This document shows positions 29,669 to 59,090 of a stretch of 64,000 bases of DNA, in pieces; within the stretch, counting starts at the first letter, position 1, and each line of letters starts with the position of its first letter. Source of the DNA: Heteronotia binoei (Eukaryota); assembly GCF_032191835.1 (NCBI RefSeq), contig NC_083236.1, positions 53,134,001 to 53,198,000 of the forward strand, in the 5' to 3' direction. The position numbers were made by a program, and so were the translations under genes. The notes under the pieces are model-generated. The model did no database searches, was not told the DNA's origin, and saw only the letters and a program-made list of their open reading frames with translations.

Positions 29669-31633
29669 AAGTCAAGAACAAGAGAGAAGTCACTTCAGGA
29701 TTAGAACAAACACAACCACGAAGGTTATAGTGACCCAATAACGAAATGATGTTAAAGTACAATAATCATAATATACGCAAAGTACAATTGAAATCATAAA
29801 GAACATGGAGTCCCAATGTGCGGGGAATCGACTTGAAACATCCTGCTTCCATCCTTCTTCAAGCATTGGGTGCTCCTTCCATAACAGTTATATAAAAAGT
29901 TCCTACTTCAAAAAACTTAACAATGATTCATCCGACCTGTCTTATAACTGCAGATAATATAAACACTTTCATAAAAGAACTACAAAGTTTCCAAAAGTTC
30001 ATTGAGGCTGTATGAGCATTGTGCCTGCTTTGAACTTTTGGAAACTTGTAGTGCCTTTATGAAAGTGTTTATATTATTTGCAGTTATCAGATGCGTCGGA
30101 TGAATCATTGTTAAGTTTTTTGAAGTAGGAACTTTTTGTATTGTGGAAGGAGCACCCCATGCTTGTTGGTTAAAACAATTTTTATTTAGTAACCTATGGT
30201 AACAATATCTTATTCCTGCATCATTAATAACTTCTTTTTATCTATCCCATATATTACTTTCTAACCACCCCTCCCCCCGTTACTTGACCCCCGCCGGTGT
30301 TATTTACTTATAATACTAATATTAAAAGGTACCCTTAACTAATAAAAACAAATATTTACATTCTTCTTCCTTCTAAGACTTAATCATTATCAAAAATTGT
30401 CCAATGTCCTTTTATTTTCCACTCTTTTTCTACATATCTTCTGAACTTTTCCCACTCCATCTTAAAAACTTCTAAGTCATAGTCTCTTAAAATTCTTGTT
30501 AATTTGTCCATTTCACTCCATGTCACTTTTACAATCCAAGCCCATTTCTCTGGTATTTTTTTCTTGCTTCCACAACTGCGCATATAATGTCCTAGCAGCT
30601 GAAAGCAAGTACCAAATTATAGTTCTATCTTCTTTTGGAAATTTTTCGATTTGTAATCCCAACAGAAAAGTCTCTGCAATTTTCTTAAATTCATATCCCA
30701 AGATCCTAGAAATTTCTTGTTGAATCATCTGCCAATACTTTTTTGCTCTTTCACAAGTCCACCACATATGGTAGAAAGAACCTTCATGTTTTTTACATTT
30801 CCAACATCTGTCTGGCATCTTATTGTTCATCTTTGCCAACTTTTTAGGAGTCATATACCATCTATATACCATTTTAAAACAGTTCTCTTTAATACTATGA
30901 CATGTCGAAAGCTTCATAGAGTTCTTCCACAAATATTCCCAAGTTTCCATCTGTATTTCTTTATTTACATTTATTGCCCACTTAATAATTTGAGATTTCA
31001 CTACTTCATCTTCTGTAGACCATTTTAAAAGTAATTTATATAGTTTTGAAATTAATTTTTCATTGTCTCCAAGCAGAACTCTTTCCATTTCTGTTTGCTC
31101 TTTTTTTATTCCTTCCGTTTTAATATCATTCTCCACCAAGCTCTTTATTTGTTGCATTTGGAACCAATCATATTTATTATTCTGCTCTTCAGCAGTTTTC
31201 AATTCTGTTTTGCCACTTTGTATTTTTAATGGTTGATTATATGACAACCACGCGTCTCATAACTGCAAATAATATAAACACTTTCATAAAGGCACTACAA
31301 AGTTTCCAAAGTTCAAAGCAGGCACAATGCTCATACAGGCTCAATGAACTTTGGAAACTTTGTAGTGCTTTTATGAAAGTGTTTATGTTATTTGCAGTTG
31401 GATGAATTGGATGAATGGATACGTTGGATGAATCATTGTTGTTTTTCATATAACTGTTATGGAAGGAGCACCCCATGCTTGAAGAAAGATGGAAGCAGGA
31501 TGTTTCAAGTTGACTCCCTGCACATTGGGACTCCATGTTCTTTATGATTTCAACTGTACTTTGTGTATATTATGATTATTGTACTTTAATATCATTTCAT
31601 TATTGGGTCACTATAACCTTCGTGGTTGTGTTT
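29669..31633. repeat. Nested inverted-repeat element of unknown family flanking the L1 fragment
   Basis: ~29708-30085 is the reverse complement of ~31255-31633; ~29862-30166 is itself a hairpin. Confidence 0.85.
30172..31247 (-). mobile_element. 5'-truncated L1-clade LINE (ORF2 C-terminus + 3' UTR)
   Basis: 244-aa ORF with RCWKC...YHMWWTC zinc knuckle and the YRWYMTPKKL motif, continuing via a frameshift (30380-30583); A-rich 3' end near 30175. Confidence 0.88.
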
Positions 31634-32281
31634 GGTGTAGTGGTTAATTGTGTGGACTCCTATCTGGGAGAACCGGGTTTGATTCCCCACTCCTCCAGTT
31701 GCACCTGCTGGAATGGCCTTGGGTCAACCATAGCTCTCGTAGGAGTTGTCCTTGAAAGGGCAGCTTCTGTGAAAGCCCTCTCAGCCCCACCCACCTTACA
31801 GGGTGTTTGTTGTGGGGGAGGAAGATAAAGGAGATTGTGAGCTGCTCTGAGACTCTTGAGTGGAGGGCGGAATATAAATCCAATGTCTTCTTCTTCCCAA
31901 CGGGAGATTGGCAGCCCTATGCATTACCAAAAGCAGTTGCTCTAGTTAAATGACTCGATACTCAATGCACTTTTCCTGTTCTGTGGCATGAAACAACAGT
32001 ACTTCTAATTGCCATTTTTCATCTGTCAAAAATTACTACATATTCCGCGCCCCCCCCCCCCCCAAACAGATAACAGAGAGTGCATCTGTTCGGTCAAAGA
32101 ATGAGACATAAATCAACCCACGTTCAAGCCAGCAGTTTGTGTTATTGGCTGACTGAGGCCTGGAATGAGAACTGGGAATAACAGCTAGCAAACGTTTCCT
32201 TCATCTACCCACAGGAACGGTGTTCTTCTCATTTTAATATCATCTCTTATAGCTTTAACGTTGTCTTCTGAAATTCCACAG

Positions 32282-33103: not shown

Positions 33104-33538
33104 GAGTCCACCATTAGAGTCCGCCATACTGGGAAATTGCTGGGTGACCTTCAGCCATCCTAACTTGCCTCATAGGATTGCTGTGAGATTAAAATGGATG
33201 AGAATTATGTAAGCCACTTTGCGTCCCCATCGGAGAGAAAGGCAGAGTATAAATGAAGTACGTAAATAAAAATAAATGAATAAATAATATATGCAGTCAC
33301 ATTAATCAGCCCAGAGAGCAACCCATTACCTCCTCCAAGAAAAATATCCATGTTTTAATCTGGTCTGATTTTTAAGGGAGACTTCCTGCAGTTGAGTTTA
33401 CATCTGTATTCTCGTTTAAACCCATCCTTTTGCTTGCCATTCTTTTGCTTGTCCCTACAACAAATTAATGATAAATGAGTGCTAAATGCTTTCAGCTTAA
33501 TAGGTAAAGTGATTAATTGGCGGCGGTTTATTTTCCAG

Positions 33539-33633
33539 TTGACGGTTTAGTAAGCGCTAAAGATATCGACCCGGTGAAGCGTTACATACCTTCCCAAGAT
33601 CAACGCAACGTTAGCATGAGATACTCAAATCAG
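33539..33633 (+). CDS. PHKB: PHKB coding exon, (V)[31 protein letters not shown]
   Basis: ttttccag acceptor, 95 bp, cag|gtatga donor; phase 1-0. Confidence 0.96.
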
Positions 33634-34792: not shown

Positions 34793-36077
34793 TTTGTGTA
34801 AGGTAACTTCAAATCTACCTTTGTTGCAGAGTTTGAAGGAACAGGTGTGGAAAGCAACGGAGTGCATACCTGGAGATAGAAACCAGCAGTGCCCAAGCAC
34901 GTTAAGAAGCATGGCTTCTGATGCAAAGTTTATTTGGGCTACTGAGGAGGCTGGCTTAAGCCAGTTTCAGCAGCTTAATCAGGTTCTGTTATCAGGTCAA
35001 AGAACAACTAAGTGGATCTTAAAGCAGTGAGATAATCACACCTAGAGCTTGAGTCAAGGTGAAATGGCTCGGTCTCAGCTCAGGAGATGGAGAGAGCATC
35101 CTGCAGGTTATTCATTTTATTAATGAGCTTGTTATATAAAAACACCCCAGTGCATAATAAAACAGGCAAAACATCTGAAGTAGGCAGAGATGGTGTGGGG
35201 GTCAGATGCGTTCAGTGAGCTCAGTCCGTCACTCAACAAAGCGCCTTTCAGACATCCATCTTGAGCGGGTTGTAAAAGATGCCAGCCACAACTCCTCAGC
35301 CACTTTATCTTTTATACTGTGTTAAGCCCTCCTAAACAGAGGAAGTCATAATTTCAAGTAATAAAGAGAAGGATGAGGTGGCGGTATGGTTTTCTTGAAC
35401 TTTGTGTCCCTTTCCATTTACGGCTCTGAGTAGCCTATGTCACCATTGCACATTTGGGGGGGAAATTAAATTCATATGCCTCTGCAGTTCATTTCTACTT
35501 TTTGATTCGGATTGTAGGCAAGACTTCAGGAAAGTCTTGTCTACAAGACTTTTCTGAAGCTGAGCCCTCTTCTCTCCCTTCCTCCCCCACCCAGCAAGGC
35601 AGCTGCTCCCTGGATAGAGACAACTGGCCTTCTCCCCCCCCCCCACTACACTGGGGAAACTTCACTTTGTGGTAGGGTTGTTGACCTTCAGGTGAGGGCT
35701 GGAGATCTGGAATTGCAACTGATTTCCACACTACATAAAGCACTTATCCATCTGTCCGTCCATCTATTCAATTGGTTGCTTTGGAAAAAGAAGAAGAAGA
35801 GGGATTTAGATCCTGCCCTTCACACGGAGTCTCAAAGCAGTTTACCATCTCTTCTTCCTCTCCCCACAAAAGACACCCTGTAAGGTAGGTAGGAGAGCTC
35901 TGAGAGAACTGTGGCTTGCCCAAGGTCACCCAGCGCTGCATGTGGAGGAGGAGTGGGGAATCAAACCTGGTTGTCCAGGTTAGAGTCTGCACTCTTAACC
36001 ACTACCCCAAACTGGCTCTCCACTGGAAGGTGGACTGCAGAGCATCATACCCGATCAAGGTCCTTCCCCTCTCTAAG

Positions 36078-36570
36078 TGTCAGAACTTAAGAACTCCAGG
36101 CAGATCCCATACTTAGTTTCCAAGCTAGGATTTTATTAGAGAGAACTAAGAACTGTTAGATACAAGGTACAAGATAACAGTGATGGCGAGAGCCAGCACT
36201 GGCCCAGTTTTATATAGTAAAACAAACAACCCACAAAGCTTTAATTCACACCGTTACAGGCACATCTGTCTTCCCACCAGTGCTATCAGCAAAGACGTTG
36301 CCTCCTTACTCTGAAGGCCACACGATTCGGCTTCAAAGGGTGTCAGTGTGAGAAAGTACAGAGATACAACATTATTCAGTCTACAGCCCCCAAATACTTT
36401 GGATACCATCGGGGCAGGGTTAACTACTACTCAGGCACTTCAGGTTAAGAAAGGTTACAATATGGGGTCGGTCTGGTTCAACGCTCAGGTCCACTCTATG
36501 CATACTCGCCAACCATCAATTATACTGGTTCTACATTAAGCTAGCAATAATAAAGTTACAAGTTCTGACA
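36078..36570 (-). repeat. 3' LTR (493 bp)
   Basis: Direct repeat of 41679-42171 (offset 5601); adjacent to the polypurine tract. Confidence 0.97.
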
Positions 36571-39500
36571 TACTGCCCCCCCTAAGCGCCCTCCCCCGGG
36601 GGGTGGCGGCTTGGGCTTGTGCGGGTACAGCAGGTGAAACTTTTTTAACAATTGCGGCGCAGCTACGTTCTGAGACTCGACCCATTCATCACAGCTCGGG
36701 GGGAAGTGCTTCCACCTGATTAAGTAATACAGTTTCCCCCGTTTGACTTTGGAGTCCAGGATTTCGTGGACTTCATGGTGACTCTGACCCCTCACTGTCG
36801 TCGGAGGGGGCGGCGGAGCCCTGGGATGGAAGGACGTGGCACCAGGGTCTTTCCGGAGTAAGCTGCAATGAAAAACAGGATGGATTTTGCTTAGAGACTT
36901 GGGCAGCTCGAGTTCTGCAGTCACCTTATTGATTACTCGTTTGATCCTAAAAGGCCCAAGAAACTTCAACGCAAGTTTGCGGCAGGGCTGAGGAAGGGGG
37001 AGGTTTTTTGTGGACAAAAAGACAGTGTCTCCCACTCTCAATTCCCATTCAGGAGAGTGTTTTTTATCAAACTGTTTTTTGTAAGCCTTTTTCGCTTCCT
37101 CCAGGTTCTCCTGAATTCCCTTCCAGCTCTCCCGAAGGCCTTCCCACCATTGTTGGCACGATGTGGGTTCTGAGGGGGTGGCAGGGAGGGGAAGCGTTGG
37201 GAAAGGCTTGCCCTCATAGCCATTTATGATTTGGAAAGGAGAGGTTTTAGTAGAGCTGTGAAGGCTGTTGTTGTAGCCGTATTCAGCGAATGGGAGTAGG
37301 TCCACCCAGTTGGACTGTTGGAAGTTAATGAAACAGCGGAGGTACTGTTCTAGAAGGCTATTAACCCTCTCCGTCTGTCCGTCCGACTGGGGGTGGTAGG
37401 CTGAGCTGAGGCCCTGCTCAATACCCGCAAGTTTGCAAAACTCCCGCCAGAAGTTGGCAACGAACTGCGTCCCGCGGTCGCTAATGACCTTGTCTGGGAA
37501 CGAGTGTAGGCGTACAATGTGTGTAAAGAAAAGTTGGGCAAGTTTTTTAGCCGTGGGGAGCTGCTTGCAGGGGATGAAGTGGGCTTGTTTGGAGAATGTA
37601 TCGACCACTACCAAAATAACAGTTTTGCCCTGCGACGGCGGGAGCTCCACAATGAAATCCATAGACACTACCGACCAAGGCCGGGTGGCTGTTGGGAGGG
37701 GCACTAGGTGGCCGGGAGGTTTACCCCCTCTTCGTTTAGCCATCAGACAGGTGGGACATGAGAGGACGAATTCGGAGACGTCTCTTTTGAGCCTAGGCCA
37801 CCAAAACTGTCGGGTAAGGAGGTTGAGGGTTTTGACATAGCCGAAATGGCCCGCCAGGCGGCTGGAATGACAATGCTCTAAAATCTGCTTGCGGAGGGAG
37901 GAGGGCACATAGATCTTTTCGTTGTGCAACAGGAGGCCGTCCTCGCTTTTACGGAGGTTCGGTGGTTGGTCTGCTTCCCGAGCAGTCTCCGCAACTAACT
38001 GAGACAAGAGGTCTGGCTCCGGGGGACCGATCCTCTTCCCGGAGCGGGTGGTGACCCCCCCCGCGATGGCCGAAGGGGGGATAAGGGAGTCCACCACCTC
38101 CTCGCGGAGGCTCTCATGCTGTGGCAGGCGGGAGAGGGCGTCCGCCAAGAAATTCTTGGTACCTGGGATGTGTTTCAGTACAAAGTCGAATTTGGCGAAA
38201 AACCCAGCCCACCGGATTTGTTTTGCAGTCATTTTGCGGCGCCCGGTCAATGCCTCGAGATTTTTGTGGTCAGTCCAGATTTCAAATGGGACTCTGGCCC
38301 CTTCAAGCCAGGAGCGCCAGGTTTTCAAGGCAAACATGACTGCAAAAGCCTCCTTGTCCCACACTGACCAATTTTTCTGCTCGTTCGAGAACTTTCGTGA
38401 AATGTAGGCGCAGGGGCGCAGAACCCCGTTGTCCCCCCTTTGCATTAATATGGCTCCGACGGCGGCGTCGGAAGCATCACATTGAACCACGAAAGGTTTT
38501 AACTCGTCAGGGTGGGCCAACACGGGCTCCGAGGTGAAGAGGCGTTTCAATTCTGTAAAGGCTTTTTGACACTCGGGCGTCCACGTTAGGCGCGCGCCCG
38601 GCTTTTTTGCCTCTGCCCCCTTCCCCTTTGTTTTAAGGAGCTCCGTAAGGGGTAACATGATGGTGGCGAACCCCTTTATGAAGTCGCGGTAAAAATTTGC
38701 GAACCCGAGAAAACTTTGGAGCTGTTTGCGGGTTCGTGGGGGCTCCCAGTCTAGCACCGCTTGAACCTTTGCTGGGTCCATTGACAACCCTTCCCCCGAT
38801 ACTCGGAAGCCTAGATAGTCTAGTTCAGTCTTGTGAAATTCACATTTTGATAGTTTGGCATACAACTTGTGCTTGCACAGGGTGCTCAACACTTTTCTGA
38901 CTAGTGGTACATGTGACTTGAGATCTGGCGAATAGATAATGATGTCATCAAGGTACACCACCACCCCCTTAAACAGGAACTCTCGCAGAACCTCGTTGAT
39001 AAAGTTCATGAATACCCCAGGGGCCCCCTGTAGCCCGAAAGGCATAACCAAGTACTCAAATTGTCCTAGCGGGGTATTGAACGCGGTCTTCCACTCGTCC
39101 CCCTCCCTGATGCGGACTCGGAAGTACGCGTCTCGGAGGTCGAGTTTTGTGAATATTTTCCCTGTGGCCACAGTATTCAATAGGTCCTTAATCAATGGGA
39201 TCGGGTAGGCATTAGACATCGAAATCCCGTTTATCGAGCGAAAATCTGTGCAAAGTCTAAGCGACCCATCCTTTTTCTTTCTGAAGAGGACGGGGGCGGC
39301 ATGGGGGGCTGTTGCCGGTCGTATGAACCCCCGCTTCAGGTTTTTGTCCAAAAATTTGCGGAGTTCCGCTTTCTCCGCCCAACCCATGGAGTACAGTTTC
39401 GCTTTTGGCAGTTGCTGCCCCGGGATCAGTTCGATTGCACAGTCCGTGGGGCGGTGAGGTGGTAACTCATCCGCCTCCTTCTCACTAAAGGCCAGTTTTA

Positions 39501-40062
39501 AGTCCCGGTATTCTTTGGGGATCGAGGCGACCTCCTCGAGGGTGAGGCAGGCTCGCTCATTCCGGGGAGGCGGATGCGGCCCCCACTCGGGGCGCCAATG
39601 GTGGTGTTCGCACCTCCAGTCCGGGAATCGGACGATCTGCTCCTCCCACCTTATGTCTGGCTGGTGGCGGGCGAGCCAACCCGAGCCCATCACCACATCA
39701 AACGAGCAAGAGGGGGCAATTACAAAAGTTTCGATCCCCCAATGCTCTTCGGTCCCAACGGGGACCGCCTGCGTTTCTAGCTTACATGGCTCTCCCCTCA
39801 TGGGCCCCCCGTCCATCTGCTGGAAAAGCATGGGTAGCGGGAGGGGGGACGTGGCTAATCCTAGCGCCTCTACTAGGCGGGGGGTGATTAAGTCCCGGTT
39901 GCACCCCGAGTCGATTAGTGCTCGGGCATGCATGAACCGTTTTAGGTTCGGGTTGAGAAGGGTTACGGCCATAAACAATAAACCCCCAGTGGCTCTCACC
40001 GTGAGGAGTGCCGGCTGTTGCTGGACCTGCTTCGCGGCACCCATTAAAGCAGGTCGTTGTCG
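36556..40062 (-). CDS. pol: Pol: protease, RT, RNase H, integrase, chromodomain; in the -1 frame relative to gag
   Basis: ALIDSG protease, YLDD RT, CDAS RNase H, H-H-C-C and SMDFI...SDRG integrase, GPF module, C-terminal chromodomain (EILDSK...YYLIRWKHFPPSCDEW). The frame is open from the slippery site at 40062; the ORF track starts it at the ATG at 40044. Confidence 0.95.
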   Translation of the reverse strand, partial: RQRPALMGAAKQVQQQPALLTVRATGGLLFMAVTLLNPNLKRFMHARALIDSGCNRDLITPRLVEALGLATSPLPLPMLFQQMDGGPMRGEPCKLETQAVPVGTEEHWGIETFVIAPSCSFDVVMGSGWLARHQPDIRWEEQIVRFPDWRCEHHHWRPEWGPHPPPRNERACLTLEEVASIPKEYRDLKLAFSEKEADELPPHRPTDCAIELIPGQQLPKAKLYSMGWAEKAELRKFLDKNLKRGFIRPATAPHAAPVLFRKKKDGSLRLCTDFRSINGISMSNAYPIPLIKDLLNTVATGKIFTKLDLRDAYFRVRIREGDEWKTAFNTPLGQFEYLVMPFGLQGAPGVFMNFINEVLREFLFKGVVVYLDDIIIYSPDLKSHVPLVRKVLSTLCKHKLYAKLSKCEFHKTELDYLGFRVSGEGLSMDPAKVQAVLDWEPPRTRKQLQSFLGFANFYRDFIKGFATIMLPLTELLKTKGKGAEAKKPGARLTWTPECQKAFTELKRLFTSEPVLAHPDELKPFVVQCDASDAAVGAILMQRGDNGVLRPCAYISRKFSNEQKNWSVWDKEAFAVMFALKTWRSWLEGARVPFEIWTDHKNLEALTGRRKMTAKQIRWAGFFAKFDFVLKHIPGTKNFLADALSRLPQHESLREEVVDSLIPPSAIAGGVTTRSGKRIGPPEPDLLSQLVAETAREADQPPNLRKSEDGLLLHNEKIYVPSSLRKQILEHCHSSRLAGHFGYVKTLNLLTRQFWWPRLKRDVSEFVLSCPTCLMAKRRGGKPPGHLVPLPTATRPWSVVSMDFIVELPPSQGKTVILVVVDTFSKQAHFIPCKQLPTAKKLAQLFFTHIVRLHSFPDKVISDRGTQFVANFWREFCKLAGIEQGLSSAYHPQSDGQTERVNSLLEQYLRCFINFQQSNWVDLLPFAEYGYNNSLHSSTKTSPFQIINGYEGKPFPTLPLPATPSEPTSCQQWWEGLRESWKGIQENLEEAKKAYKKQFDKKHSPEWELRVGDTVFLSTKNLPLPQPCRKLALKFLGPFRIKRVINKVTAELELPKSLSKIHPVFHCSLLRKDPGATSFHPRAPPPPPTTVRGQSHHEVHEILDSKVKRGKLYYLIRWKHFPPSCDEWVESQNVAAPQLLKKFHLLYPHKPKPPPPGGGRLGGAVCQNL
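36573..36597 (-). promoter_or_regulatory. Polypurine tract
   Basis: GGGGGAGGGCGCTTAGGGGGGGCAG followed by TA then the TG of the 3' LTR. Confidence 0.85.
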
Positions 40063-40068
40063 TTTCCC
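40006..40068 (-). promoter_or_regulatory. -1 programmed ribosomal frameshift signal: G GGA AAC slippery heptamer + H-type pseudoknot
   Basis: Heptamer 40068-40062 in gag phase; 6-nt spacer; stem 1 GACCTGCTT (40055-40047) / AAGCAGGTC (40032-40024); loop GGGTGCCG pairs with CGGCACTC (40013-40006). Confidence 0.88.
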
Positions 40069-41624
40069 GCCGACTCGGTGTCGTCCGACTCCCCGGTCGA
40101 TTCTTCCACGGTTTCTGGTTCGGCGGTAAAATCCTCGTCAGTCGCCAAGGTGGTGGCGACGGAGCCCCGTCCGGGCTCTTTCGGCCGACTACTCTTTTTC
40201 TTCTTGGGCCCCGATGCGGTTGGCCTGGCTGTCGGCGGGGTGGACCCCGCTTTGGCTGGGCAGTTGGAGGCGAGGTGGTCCGGGTCGCCGCACCGGTAAC
40301 ACTTTCGGGCAGTGGTGGGGGTCGAGGTTGTCGGGGCCCGTCGCCCCTCCGCCTTGGTGGGTGTGGATTTCAACCCCTTCTTCGCCAGTTGCTGTCGGCG
40401 AAGCCCCACGTGCTGGATGTTGGTCTCGACCTCTCCGGCTAGCTGGATCCACCCGACCAAGGTGTCGGGTCGCCCGTGGCTGTAGCAGCGGTCGAGGACG
40501 TTCGGGTTCAGCCCGTTACAAAAAGCAGTATATTTCATAATCTCGTTCCACCCTCTCACTGCCGCGCAGTAGCCCAGGAACTCCGTGGCATACTCGCGAA
40601 TGGATCGGTTGCCTTGTTCGATGCGCTGGAGGGCTGCGATGGCTTTCTCCTCGCGGAGCGGGTCGCCGTACTGGCGGAGCATGGCGTGCAGGAACCCCGC
40701 TACAGTTGCTAGCTCGGGCTTCCTCGCGGTGAACAGCCCGACGTACCATTTGCGGGCTGGACCTCTCAGTCGGGACGCAATGAGGTACACTCGGCTGGCT
40801 TCGGTCGGGTAGTCCGCACCCCAGTGGGTAAAGAACGTGTCGCACTGTATGGTGAAGTACTCCACGTCCTCTGGGCTCCCGTCGAATGTAATTTTCAGCT
40901 CTCTCCCCCCCCCTGCGACCGGGGGTGCCGCGGGTTGGGGCACCGGGGCCGGCAGGGCCGGTAGGGCTGGTGCAGCTGGGGCCGGCGGCGCTGGCGGTGC
41001 GGGCACGGGGACCGCCGGGGGCGCCGGAACTGGCGGCGCCGGAGGCGCTGGGACCGGCGGCGCGGGGGCCCCCGGGGCCGGAGGCGCCACTGGTTGTGGG
41101 GCCGGTGGGGCTGGAGCGGGCACCACCGGCGGCGCGGGAGCCAGCGGGGCCGGTGGAGCCACGGGCGGTTGCCCCAGCGGCAGCCCTCCCACGGGGATCC
41201 CCAGGACCGCCGTCTGCAAGGTGCGGAGCTGGTCGTAGATCGCGCCTAGGTTCTGTTGCATCTCCTCGGCCATCATAACTCGGGAGGCGTGTACGTCGTT
41301 GTGAATTTCCCGTACATAGTCGAACAGGTCGTTGCGGAGGCTCCGGACCGGGTCGTCCCCGCCTCGCGGTTCTGGACCTTCGCCCTGGTCGTCGTCTCCG
41401 TCTCCGCTTGCCCCGTCGCCCAGCATACTTCTGTACCGCTGCTCCGCCGCGTCGATCGCCGCCGTGGATTTCCGCGGGCTCCAGGATCGGGGTGCGGCGA
41501 ACGCGTCCACCGAGAAAGGTGCGGGCACCTTAATCTTGCGCCTCACCCCCGTCACCTTCGGGTCGAGCGGCGGGTCCTCCGTTGGAGTGGTGGGCTCTCC
41601 GTTGTCTGGAACCTTTGCAGCCAT
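40044..41624 (-). CDS. gag: Gag (526 aa): N-terminal helical region, Pro/Ala-rich linker, Ty3-type capsid, CCHC zinc knuckle
   Basis: Uninterrupted ORF starting 54 nt after the 5' LTR; FDGSPEDV capsid start, QGNRSIREYATEF major-homology-like motif, CYRCGDPDHLASNC knuckle. Confidence 0.94.
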   Translation of the reverse strand: MAAKVPDNGEPTTPTEDPPLDPKVTGVRRKIKVPAPFSVDAFAAPRSWSPRKSTAAIDAAEQRYRSMLGDGASGDGDDDQGEGPEPRGGDDPVRSLRNDLFDYVREIHNDVHASRVMMAEEMQQNLGAIYDQLRTLQTAVLGIPVGGLPLGQPPVAPPAPLAPAPPVVPAPAPPAPQPVAPPAPGAPAPPVPAPPAPPVPAPPAVPVPAPPAPPAPAAPALPALPAPVPQPAAPPVAGGGRELKITFDGSPEDVEYFTIQCDTFFTHWGADYPTEASRVYLIASRLRGPARKWYVGLFTARKPELATVAGFLHAMLRQYGDPLREEKAIAALQRIEQGNRSIREYATEFLGYCAAVRGWNEIMKYTAFCNGLNPNVLDRCYSHGRPDTLVGWIQLAGEVETNIQHVGLRRQQLAKKGLKSTPTKAEGRRAPTTSTPTTARKCYRCGDPDHLASNCPAKAGSTPPTARPTASGPKKKKSSRPKEPGRGSVATTLATDEDFTAEPETVEESTGESDDTESAGNDNDLL

Positions 41625-41665
41625 CGGGCCGGGTTTCCAGTTCAGATAAGCTCCGAAACAATGGG

Positions 41666-41676
41666 ATCACTGTTAT
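41666..41676 (-). promoter_or_regulatory. Self-priming primer-binding site (ATAACAGTGAT), 2 nt downstream of the 5' LTR
   Basis: Perfectly complementary to ATCACTGTTAT at 41785-41775 in the LTR, which lies 30 nt downstream of the TATA box. It lacks the TGG start of tRNA-type PBSs. Confidence 0.85.
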
Positions 41677-41678
41677 AA

Positions 41679-42171
41679 TGTCAGAACTTAAGAACTCCAG
41701 GCAGATCCCATACTTAGTTTCCAAGCTAGGATTTTATTAGAGAGAACTAAGAACTGTTAGATACAAGGTACAAGATAACAGTGATGGCGAGAGCCAGCAC
41801 TGGCCCAGTTTTATATAGTAAAACAAACAACCCACAAAGCTTTAATTCACACCGTTACAGGCACATCTGTCTTCCCACCAGTGCTATCAGCAAAGACGTT
41901 GCCTCCTTACTCTGAAGGCCACACGATTCGGCTTCAAAGGGTGTCAGTGTGAGAAAGTACAGAGATACAACATTATTCAGTCTACAGCCCCCAAATACTT
42001 TGGATACCATCGGGGCAGGGTTAACTACTACTCAGGCACTTCAGGTTAAGAAAGGTTACAATATGGGGTCGGTCTGGTTCAACGCTCAGGTCCACTCTAT
42101 GCATACTCGCCAACCATCAATTATACTGGTTCTACATTAAGCTAGCAATAATAAAGTTACAAGTTCTGACA
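41679..42171 (-). repeat. 5' LTR (493 bp)
   Basis: Ends TGTCAGAACTT...AAGTTCTGACA (11-bp terminal inverted repeat); no difference from 36078-36570 seen on base-by-base reading. Confidence 0.97.
41809..41817 (-). promoter_or_regulatory. LTR TATA box (TATATAAAA); predicted TSS 41785; poly(A) signal AATAAA at 41738-41733
   Basis: Canonical ~30-nt spacing to a CA initiator. Duplicated in the 3' LTR (offset -5601). Confidence 0.75.
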
Positions 42172-42288
42172 CTCTCCCAGGCACTGCTCTCAAATTTCTA
42201 GGTATTTCCAAACCCAGAACTGGCAACTCTACCTTGCGATAATCTGTAAGAATTCTCACAATTCTCTGGAGGTCTCATATTTTAATAT

Positions 42289-45797: not shown

Positions 45798-46367
45798 TGT
45801 GTATGTGGACTCATGCAATATGTTCTACCAGGGTTCCTGCCTGGCTCATTGGAGCCGTGTGGAACTTGGGGACTCAGGAACAATGGGCAGTAGGATCCAA
45901 ATCCCTGCTGCCTTGGTCCAATCACAGGCCCCCTGCTGGTTCAAATGACCCAATGGTATTCTGGTGCAGGAACCTTGAACTGTATATAGTTGGCCCCATT
46001 GGCCTCAGTATCCAATCTCAGAGTTCAGCCGTTACTATGCTGTACTGAATAGAGAGCTATTTTCACTGCAACTGCGTCTCCTTCACGTGTTGAACCTACT
46101 ATATTATATTTTATTCAGTACAGCATAGTAACGGCTGTACTCTAAGACTGGATACTAGGGCCAACGGGGCCAACTATATACAGTTCAAGGTTCCTGTGCT
46201 AGAACACCATTGGGTCATTTGAACCAGCAGGGGGCCTGTGATTGGACCAGGGCAGCAGGGATTTGGATCCCTGTTCATTGTTCCTGAGTCCCCAAGCTCA
46301 GTCCACATGGCTCCAATGAGCCAGGCAGGAACACTGGTAGAACGTATTGCATGAGTCCACATACACA
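45798..46367. repeat. Long foldback: ~255-bp inverted arms, 60-bp spacer
   Basis: 45798-46051 is the reverse complement of 46112-46367 with scattered mismatches. Confidence 0.93.
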
Positions 46368-48874: not shown

Positions 48875-49281
48875 CAGGGGTGGCCAAACTGTGGCTTGGA
48901 AACTACGTGAGGCTCTTTCACACATATTTTGTGGCTCTTGAAGCCCCCACCACCCTGTCAGTCAGCTTGGAGAAGGCATTTCTCTCTTTAAACCATTTCA
49001 AGCCAAGTCAGCTAGCAGCTTGGAGAATGCATTTCAAGATAAAGTTGCTTTCTTTCCACTTCTCNNNNNNNNNNNNNNNNNNNNNNNNNNNNNNNNNNNN
49101 NNNNNNNNNNNNNNNNNNNNNNNNNNNNNNNNNNNNNNNNNNNNNNNNNNNNNNNNNNNNNNNNNNNNNNNNNNNNNNNNNNNNNNNNNNNNNNNNNNNN
49201 NNNNNNNCATGCCTTGCAACTCTCAAATATCTGACGTTTATTCTGTGTGGCTCTTACATTAAGCAAGTTTGGCCACCCCTA
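48875..49281. mobile_element. hAT (Charlie-like) MITE, CAGGGGTGGCCAAACT termini, containing an assembly gap
   Basis: TSD gtatagac on both sides; N-run 49065-49207. Confidence 0.85.
49065..49207. other. Assembly gap (143 N)
   Basis: N-run. Confidence 1.
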
Positions 49282-58165: not shown

Positions 58166-58221
58166 GGCCCTCTTGAAAATGACTTGGTGGTCCATGTTGC
58201 ATTGATTGCTGAAAGCCAACG
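58166..58221 (+). CDS. PHKB: PHKB coding exon, GPLENDLVVHVALIAESQ(R)
   Basis: gcttttag acceptor, 56 bp, acg|gtaagc donor; phase 0-2. Confidence 0.97.
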
Positions 58222-58572
58222 GTAAGCCATTCATAACCAGTAACAAGCCTCTGCTCCCAAATGCAAATGCTGTATATATAAACTACCAACCCCAGGAGAA
58301 GCCAGAGCTGCTTGACCCATATGTGGATGCTTAGAAAGTCTGTGAAACTACATGCGCGGTTCCTGTTCCAGAGCCTGAAGAAGCTACATTCTGTGAAACG
58401 GCTGGTCCAGCTAGTGGCACCGTCGCCAGAGTGGTGTGGCCAGGTCACATGGGACGCTTCATGAATTTGTGCTTTTGGACACTTATGAAAAGACTTCTTT
58501 CTGAATGTTGGATTGGTCTCTATTTGAATGTCTGAGTGGTCTATGTGAGATGTTCATCCCCTCCATGTAGGG

Positions 58573-59090
58573 CAGGGGTGGCCAAACTGTGGCTCGGGAG
58601 CCACATATGGCTCTTCCACACATATTGTGTGGCTCTTGAAACCTCCATCAGCTGACTTGGAGAAAGCATTTCTCTCTTTAAATCACTTTGTCAAGCCAGC
58701 TGGTGCCTTGAAGAATGCATTTAAAATTGCTTTCTTTCCACCTCNNNNNNNNNNNNNNNNNNNNNNNNNNNNNNNNNNNNNNNNNNNNNNNNNNNNNNNN
58801 NNNNNNNNNNNNNNNNNNNNNNNNNNNNNNNNNNNNNNNNNNNNNNNNNNNNNNNNNNNNNNNNNNNNNNNNNNNNNNNNNNNNNNNNNNNNNNNNNNNN
58901 NNNNNNNNNNNNNNNNNNNNNNNNNNNNNNNNNNNNNNNNNNNNNNNNNNNNNNNNNNNNNNNNNNNNNNNNNNNNNNNNNNNNNNNNNNNNNNNNNNNN
59001 NNNNNNNNNACATCTGACATTCATGATTTGCGGCTCTCAATCATCTGGCATCTATGTGGCTCTTACATTAAGCAAGTTTGGCCACCCTTG
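58573..59090. mobile_element. Same hAT MITE family, containing an assembly gap
   Basis: TSD atgtaggg on both sides; N-run 58745-59009. Confidence 0.85.
58745..59009. other. Assembly gap (265 N)
   Basis: N-run. Confidence 1.

Follow-up and report, generated by a model that had tools for sequence, protein, structure and literature searches.

A full-length chromodomain element, which we take to be Amn-ichi, was reportedly described from Anolis by Piskurek et al. in 2009. The full-length chromoviruses described from reptiles have an LTR-gag-pol-LTR layout without env, a pol that encodes protease, reverse transcriptase (RT), RNase H and integrase (IN) with a C-terminal chromodomain, no tRNA-type primer-binding site (PBS), and an AATAAA close to the LTR's 3' end. 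The element analysed here shares all of these traits and differs in its long gag, whose N-terminal region is otherwise found only in a gecko protein. According to the accessible part of PMC3670739, active Ty3/gypsy elements were lost in birds and mammals, and reptiles retain full-length ones. The available excerpts on the Tf1/sushi group present self-priming as its hallmark and a 5-bp target-site duplication as the rule for its young copies; they also record that a perfect duplication is missing in some young Tosmo (1/4) and grasshopper (1/6) copies.

The window, that is, the whole 64-kb stretch of DNA analysed, holds ten coding exons of PHKB on the plus strand. Among the matches listed for a PHKB exon, identity was 98% to Podarcis, 95% to Lerista and 92% to turtles, and no gecko was among them. 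A retrotransposon of 6,094 bp (36078-42171, minus strand) lies antisense to the gene in an intron of about 24.5 kb (33634-58165, plus strand), between the exons at 33538-33633 and 58166-58222; the preliminary description had already placed it inside PHKB. The plus strand carries an AATAAA at 36549 and at 42150. Its effect on PHKB is likely to be near neutral, judging from the intronic, antisense position. We consider it probable that the element, full-length and with open frames, is a chromovirus of the Tf1/sushi group that inserted recently in a PHKB intron of a lizard, likely a gecko, with predicted self-priming and a predicted -1 frameshift for Pol.

Structure and coding capacity of the element

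The two LTRs (5' LTR, 41679-42171; 3' LTR, 36078-36570; minus strand, 493 bp each) were found by computation to be an exact repeat, identical at 493/493 sites, which confirms what had been noted on reading. Each has TG...CA ends with an 11-bp terminal inverted repeat. A polypurine tract of one A and seven G (36576-36583, minus strand) lies 5 nt upstream of the 3' LTR, and there is no N within the element. With two such LTRs, a PBS, the polypurine tract and a pol in the order protease, RT, RNase H and integrase, the element is a member of the Ty3/gypsy group (Metaviridae).

The gag frame (40044-41624, minus strand) runs from an ATG at 41624 to a stop at 40044 and encodes 526 aa, arranged as an N-terminal region, a Pro/Ala-rich linker of about 105 aa, a capsid and a CCHC knuckle, with Pfam matches to Retrotrans_gag, Ty3_capsid and zf-CCHC. 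The pol region (36556-40061, minus strand) encodes protease (about 39930-39625), RT, RNase H, an integrase with HHCC, DDE and GPF/SH3 parts, and a chromodomain (about 36774-36634). Its frame is open over 40137-36556 and comprises 1,168 codons counted from the slip site; neither gag nor pol contains a stop or frameshift, as had been claimed. The pol stop codon occupies nucleotides 13-15 inside the 3' LTR, and no space remains for env, which is absent. Pfam matches in pol were RVT_1, RNase H, Integrase_H2C2, rve, SH3_Tf2-1 and Chromo; the protease matched below the cut-off only, but its DSG is nevertheless present. All catalytic motifs are present, as the preliminary description had stated; DSG, YLDD, DAS, HHCC, GPF, and the acidic motifs of RNase H and integrase could be located. 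In a comparison with 25 relatives, 200 columns showed conservation of 95% or more, and the element departs at 11 of them, within the range of the relatives themselves (0-12).

The chromodomain at the integrase's C-terminus (Pfam Chromo, E 1.4e-8, above the cut-off) identifies the element as a chromovirus, and its best matches among solved structures were HP1/CBX proteins. One of the three positions of its aromatic cage carries His, although the residue there is aromatic in 100 of 108 aligned relatives, and because of this His the reading of histone marks by the chromodomain may be reduced.

Predicted self-priming and frameshift signals

All signals in this section lie on the minus strand. The only TATA box match in the LTR (TATATAA, 41811-41817) predicts an RNA start 32 nt after its first base, and the first 11 nt of this RNA (41775-41785) form a putative self-primer. 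Their exact complement, the PBS (41666-41676), begins 2 nt past the LTR. It starts with ATAAC instead of a tRNA-type TGG, and priming by a tRNA was rejected since no TGG follows the LTR; this use of the RNA's own predicted 5' end is the priming type of the Tf1/sushi group. The window contains no tRNA gene, and an Rfam scan gave one match at chance level (E 5). An AATAAA lies in R (41733-41738); the signal in use would be its counterpart in the 3' LTR, at 36137.

When the RNA was folded without constraints from 41785 onwards, the pairing probability between primer and PBS was 0.63-1.0 per pair and at least 0.90 in 10 of the 11 pairs. A complement of this kind, at any place, occurred in 42 of 50,000 resampled LTRs. 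With 5 further upstream bases the same region folded without the primer/PBS duplex, suggesting that the structure hangs on the exact start site.

Pairing of an RNA 5'-end self-primer with a PBS just past the LTR is likewise found in Tf1/Tf2 and Tosmo of fission yeast. In the accessible text of the sources, the PBS of Tf1 also begins with ATAAC, and Tosmo, Tcry1 and Tj1 have the same TGTCA...TGACA ends as the element. Unlike Tf1/Tf2 and Tosmo, the element has gag and pol in different frames, a PBS 2 nt from the LTR end and, at this locus, no 5-bp duplication. Nested folding also did not recover the whole 'pretzel' of three duplexes of these elements; the central duplex formed, and the two flanking duplexes did not clearly appear.

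The heptamer GGGAAAC (40062-40068) is in the register that fits a -1 shift into pol. A predicted H-type pseudoknot (40006-40055), with stems chosen by eye, begins 6 nt past the heptamer; its stem 1 has 9 bp (-13.9 kcal/mol) and its stem 2 has 8 bp (-12.9 kcal/mol). As a nested fold, the region was not unusually stable (z -0.63). GGGAAAC, with a structure 5-8 nt downstream, is also the heptamer of PEG10 according to the part of PMC11299033 available.

Relatives of the element

We placed the element in a quick, midpoint-rooted RT-IN tree of 40 rows, 39 of them hand-chosen from 120 listed matches with none removed later; the tree holds neither a non-chromoviral outgroup nor named reference elements. 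Anolis, Crotalus and two rows without a name formed the sister group of the element (SH-aLRT 100), and with the root at the midpoint, squamate rows made up a clade separate from the fish and frog rows. Where named, the best 120 pol matches were squamate, fish, frog, fungal and algal elements, and in the tree, which has chromoviral rows only, the RT-RNase H-IN region groups with fungal and vertebrate chromoviruses. Taken together, domains, motifs, tree and self-priming signals bear out the chromoviral, sushi-type identity proposed earlier.

Among the best 120 matches, the closest full pol relatives were 50-53% identical. The closest relatives of gag were pieces from the gecko Heteronotia binoei, with 86% identity across 96 aa in the capsid and 60% across 107 aa in the N-terminal region (pol, 51%), and the N-terminal region was matched by the gecko protein only. 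The capsid region was matched by 32 of the 120 listed pol relatives, the best 20 at about 24-32%. An insensitive whole-gag search returned one match among the 8,000 word-sharing candidates scored.

The same squamate clade includes chromoviral families, themselves unnamed, from Anolis carolinensis, Crotalus adamanteus, Podarcis muralis and Heteronotia binoei. They are multi-copy with a long open pol; the Anolis pol cluster has 366 members at 90%, and 15 of 15 listed members are from Anolis. The element is distinct from these families at the sequence level, and no full-length gecko protein of its own family was among the matches. The family is new but its kind is known; full-length reptile chromoviruses have already been published. 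A search of mainly open-access papers for an intact gecko or squamate family gave none that describes this one.

The preliminary description had also linked this clade to the mammalian PEG10 and RTL1 genes. For the group the link holds in the accessible parts of PMC3670739 and PMC10570562; for this element in particular it does not, its capsid region matching the solved fragment of PEG10 (PDB 7lga) only remotely, at E = 0.11. The element shares with PEG10 and the RTL/SIRH (Mart) genes the heptamer GGGAAAC followed by a structure, a DSG protease and a CCHC gag. The mammalian genes differ in being domesticated, in occurring as single copies and in lacking LTRs. The element has no signs of domestication, and a domesticated RTL/SIRH gene was ruled out since both LTRs and all mobility functions are kept.

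Age and insertion site

With zero differences between the LTRs, assumed rates set an age limit of about 0.9-2 My, in agreement with the youth claimed before; the insertion likely occurred within the last 1-2 million years. This is an age limit and not proof of current activity. The CpG content of the element has not decayed (observed/expected 0.86, vs 0.27 in the flanks). Decay of the surrounding repeats, also claimed, was confirmed by six copies of one SINE-like repeat that were 81-94% identical to each other in 15/15 pairs. Neither a solo LTR nor a second copy of the element was present in the window.

A feature that the preliminary description did not report is that a target-site duplication, 4-6 bp in Ty3/gypsy elements, is absent here. 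The element splits an old host repeat, of which the first half (36024-36077, plus strand) and the second half (42172-42231, plus strand) continue each other, and the junction lacks 6 bases that 5 of the 7 other copies of this repeat in the window have. Both LTR ends are exact, and the host is missing about 6 bases. The absent duplication characterizes this one insertion and not the sequence of the element, and it is at odds with a fresh integration of the textbook kind. Integrase-independent insertion through PBS/PPT homology was not supported, since the number of matching bases next to the junction was 0 on each side and the best match was 7/12 with a 1-base shift.

Discussion

A cycle consistent with these signals would run as follows. 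Transcription would start about 32 nt past the LTR TATA box, and the first 11 nt of the RNA, by their computed complementarity, would fold back onto the PBS. RNase H would cut off the 11-nt primer as in Tf1, and the primer would start minus-strand DNA, with the G-rich tract serving as the primer of the plus strand. Ribosomes may slip at GGGAAAC before the pseudoknot and so make Gag-Pol, and the chromo-integrase would insert the DNA. Exact LTR ends together with a loss of about 6 host bases instead of a duplication suggest that the insertion was started by the integrase and finished imprecisely by host repair.

Other histories of the junction have to be weighed against this one. A 5-mer match, CTCTC, at offset 4 from the left junction could be read as an ordinary 5-bp duplication together with four additional bases where the 3' LTR ends, in a host repeat that already bore a short deletion. 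Deletions there do occur in 2 of 7 other copies of the repeat, and non-templated bases are added by the RT of Tf1 according to the excerpt at hand. This reading is very unlikely, because the internal similarity of the repeat gives the same match at similar offsets in 4 of 7 uninterrupted copies, which makes the 5-mer weak as a duplication, and because the four bases align with host-repeat columns and differ from those following the 5' LTR. It is quite unlikely that young cDNA, or gene conversion with a young copy as donor, later overwrote an older insertion or solo LTR whose junction was already eroded. In that case a young sequence would sit at an old site, and the insertion would be fixed rather than polymorphic. 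Such overwriting accounts for a pristine element without a duplication, and in the accessible part of PMC11042837 Tf1 cDNA without integrase enters mostly by recombination at existing Tf2 elements. However, the products there were tandem elements and not clean replacements, the window contains no older LTR remnant, and erosion would have had to halt precisely at the LTR end.

We also regard it as unlikely that the assembly collapsed many similar copies into their majority version and set this between two real junctions, the true allele being a more diverged element or a solo LTR. Collapse yields perfect identity and perfect frames, and the junction is odd. The window has two N gaps, so that the assembly may rest on short reads, in which case variants of LTR or interior could have been merged. 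Against this, the 6.1 kb are free of N, and the two flanks together make up one host repeat in collinear order, which indicates that the locus itself is coherent. A duplication would presumably survive collapse, since each junction comes from reads, and even a collapsed family must be young and intact. We favor a recent, integrase-started insertion with imprecise repair.

A bolder proposal, which we think improbable, is that a chromovirus family confined to geckos, whose gag has an N-terminal domain of its own, transposes at present, that the PHKB copy is segregating in the population, and that copies often lack a target-site duplication since host repair finishes integration. If true, this would be a living amniote example, inserting atypically, of the self-priming, frameshifting element type that gave rise to PEG10.

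The element leaves general knowledge of the group unchanged. Because it lacks a target-site duplication, finders that require one, as in the accessible description of PMC6317226, would skip this copy. As an intact gecko-type copy in which all cis signals can be read, it provides a clean example for annotating the group in geckos, for which the literature search turned up no description, and is useful for the study of self-priming and PEG10-type frameshifting in an amniote.

Structure and coding capacity of the element

The host gene was identified as PHKB by an exon scan and searches, and tblastn placed ten of its coding exons on the plus strand. The exon searched shares 98% identity with Podarcis and 92% with turtles, which marks the host as a squamate. 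The element, a Ty3/gypsy chromovirus of the Tf1/sushi group (36078-42171, minus strand), lies inside PHKB, as the preliminary description had proposed; it is antisense to the gene, in the intron 33634-58165. The element is 6,094 bp long and contains no N. Its LTRs (5' LTR, 41679-42171; 3' LTR, 36078-36570; both minus strand) start with TG, end with CA and carry an 11-bp terminal inverted repeat, and repeat comparison showed them to be identical at 493 of 493 bases. Both the gag frame (ATG at 41624 to 40044, minus strand, 526 aa) and the pol frame (40137 to 36556, minus strand, 1,168 codons counted from the slip site) are open, and the pol stop codon falls within the 3' LTR. Pfam matched a capsid and a CCHC knuckle in gag, and RT, RNase H, HHCC, integrase core, Tf2-type SH3 and Chromo in pol; the protease scored below the cut-off, but DSG is nonetheless present, and every catalytic motif was located. 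The identical LTRs, intact frames and complete motifs noticed on first reading were thus borne out, and the element is real and intact.

At 200 columns conserved in at least 95% of 25 relatives, the element departs at 11, and the relatives' own departures in the same test range from 0 to 12. At one of the three positions of the chromodomain aromatic cage the element has His, where 100 of 108 aligned relatives have an aromatic residue and 3 have His (109 of 120 proteins could be aligned).

Each LTR also carries AATAAA on the PHKB sense strand (plus strand, 36549 and 42150), a possible premature poly(A) signal for PHKB; such hexamers are frequent in introns. The same intron holds a MITE-like inverted repeat (45893-46270; 159-nt arms, 93% complementary, 60 nt apart). 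Nested inverted repeats at 29691-31650 (arms of 208 and 108 nt, 92% complementary) are possibly a decayed DNA transposon, and the 247-codon open frame that they enclose (30516-31256, minus strand) had no Pfam match. Both N gaps of the window (49065-49207 and 58745-59009) fall in copies of one family of host repeats, which points to gaps that short reads left at repetitive sequence.

Age

The absence of differences at 493 LTR sites bounds the age at 0.9-2.0 My under assumed, unmeasured rates (3.5-1.5e-9 per site and year). Combining LTR identity with the absence of stops and frameshifts gave 0.75-1.0 My at 2.5e-9. CpG observed/expected is 0.86 in the element interior versus 0.27 outside. Nearby SINE-like copies are just 81-94% alike, which agrees with the earlier impression of a young element among decayed ones. 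The element is young, yet its age is no proof of present activity or polymorphism.

Priming and frameshift signals

No tRNA-type PBS was found after the 5' LTR. Instead, the PBS consists of 11 bases (41666-41676, minus strand), 2 nt past the 5' LTR, that exactly complement a predicted self-primer at the predicted RNA start (41775-41785, minus strand), 32 nt past the start of the sole TATA box in the LTR. Such a complement, at any position, occurred in 42 of 50,000 resampled LTRs. Folding from the predicted start placed the primer/PBS duplex in the minimum-energy structure for all three lengths, with a pairing probability of at least 0.90 for 10 of 11 pairs. With five extra upstream bases the duplex disappeared, so the structure hinges on the exact start site, and the flanking duplexes of the 'pretzel' were not clearly recovered. 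A G7 tract lies 5 nt ahead of the 3' LTR. The pairing of primer and PBS is the self-priming layout described for Tf1/sushi elements (10.1101/2022.12.06.519325; PMC6317226); the first five PBS bases are those given for Tf1 (PMC11042837), and the termini match those given for Tosmo and Tj1 (10.1101/2022.12.06.519325). The element likely primes as Tf1 does.

The gag and pol frames overlap, with a GGGAAAC heptamer at 40068 in the -1 register and, 6 nt downstream, a 9-bp and an 8-bp stem that cross each other and were chosen by eye; the nested fold by itself is unremarkable. A GGGAAAC heptamer followed by structure is the layout reported for PEG10 (PMC11299033), and the element is likely to frameshift in the same way.

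Relatives and phylogeny

Among the matches listed, the best full-length pol relatives share 50-53% identity. In a quick RT-IN tree with 40 rows, the element was the sister of a group made up of Anolis, Crotalus and two rows without a name (support 100), and it fell in an 18-row clade in which every named member is a squamate (support 99); with a gecko host, this placement fits vertical descent. Clustering at 90% identity gave Anolis-represented clusters of 366 and 160 members and Podarcis-represented clusters of 15-24, so that multi-copy chromoviral families with open frames are common among squamates. A 2009 paper reportedly described a full-length Anolis chromodomain element.

Close gag relatives were only two predicted proteins, both from the gecko Heteronotia binoei, which makes a gecko host likely. 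XP_060110985.1 (86% over 96 aa of capsid; pol piece 51%) is an automatic gene model that combines a pair of short-chain dehydrogenase units with segments of gag capsid and pol from a close relative of the element; rather than a genuine fusion, it is most likely a prediction that ran across an inserted copy. XP_060096939.1 (60% over 107 aa) was the one match to the gag N-terminal region among 1.84 billion representatives; annotated 'large proline-rich protein BAG6-like', it matches that region and the Pro/Ala linker and is likely a mislabelled retrotransposon piece.

Full-length Metaviridae including chromoviruses are reported in reptiles and missing in birds and mammals (PMC3670739), V-clade elements occur in fish, amphibians and sauropsids (PMC2774666), and PEG10 and RTL1 share homology with sushi-ichi, one review favouring an extinct retrovirus as their source (PMC10570562). 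Our literature search found no account of the element's family; the element is new at the family level, within an already known type.

A junction without target-site duplication

The flanks are two halves of a single old host repeat (36024-36077 and 42172-42231, plus strand), and the bases flanking the element on its two sides differ. Young Tf1/sushi copies usually have a 5-bp duplication, as described for 3 of 4 Tosmo and 5 of 6 grasshopper copies (10.1101/2022.12.06.519325), whereas the element has none. Of the seven other host-repeat copies in the window, five carry 6 bases between the matching columns; of the remaining two, one carries 2 and the other lacks any. Junction homology to the PBS or PPT (36576-36583, minus strand), which marks the integrase-independent route of Tf1 (PMC11042837), was absent at the insertion site. 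Host bases just past the 3' LTR (36062-36077, minus strand) do resemble the purine tract ahead of it (36571-36586, minus strand), the first five being the same; as homology-driven insertion this is on the wrong side, and it is probably chance. A SINE-like copy (35820-36020) directly precedes the host repeat, so that three repeats are nested or lie side by side here.

We favour an insertion that integrase would start and repair would complete with a small loss of host bases. Assembly collapse at the locus is unlikely, and the overwriting of an older site slightly more so. A duplication obscured by filler bases could draw on the 5-mer repeat at offset 4 from the junction, but a similar 5-mer arises in 4 of 7 uninterrupted host-repeat copies, and we consider this reading very improbable. 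The absent duplication is the sole feature of the element that deserves follow-up.
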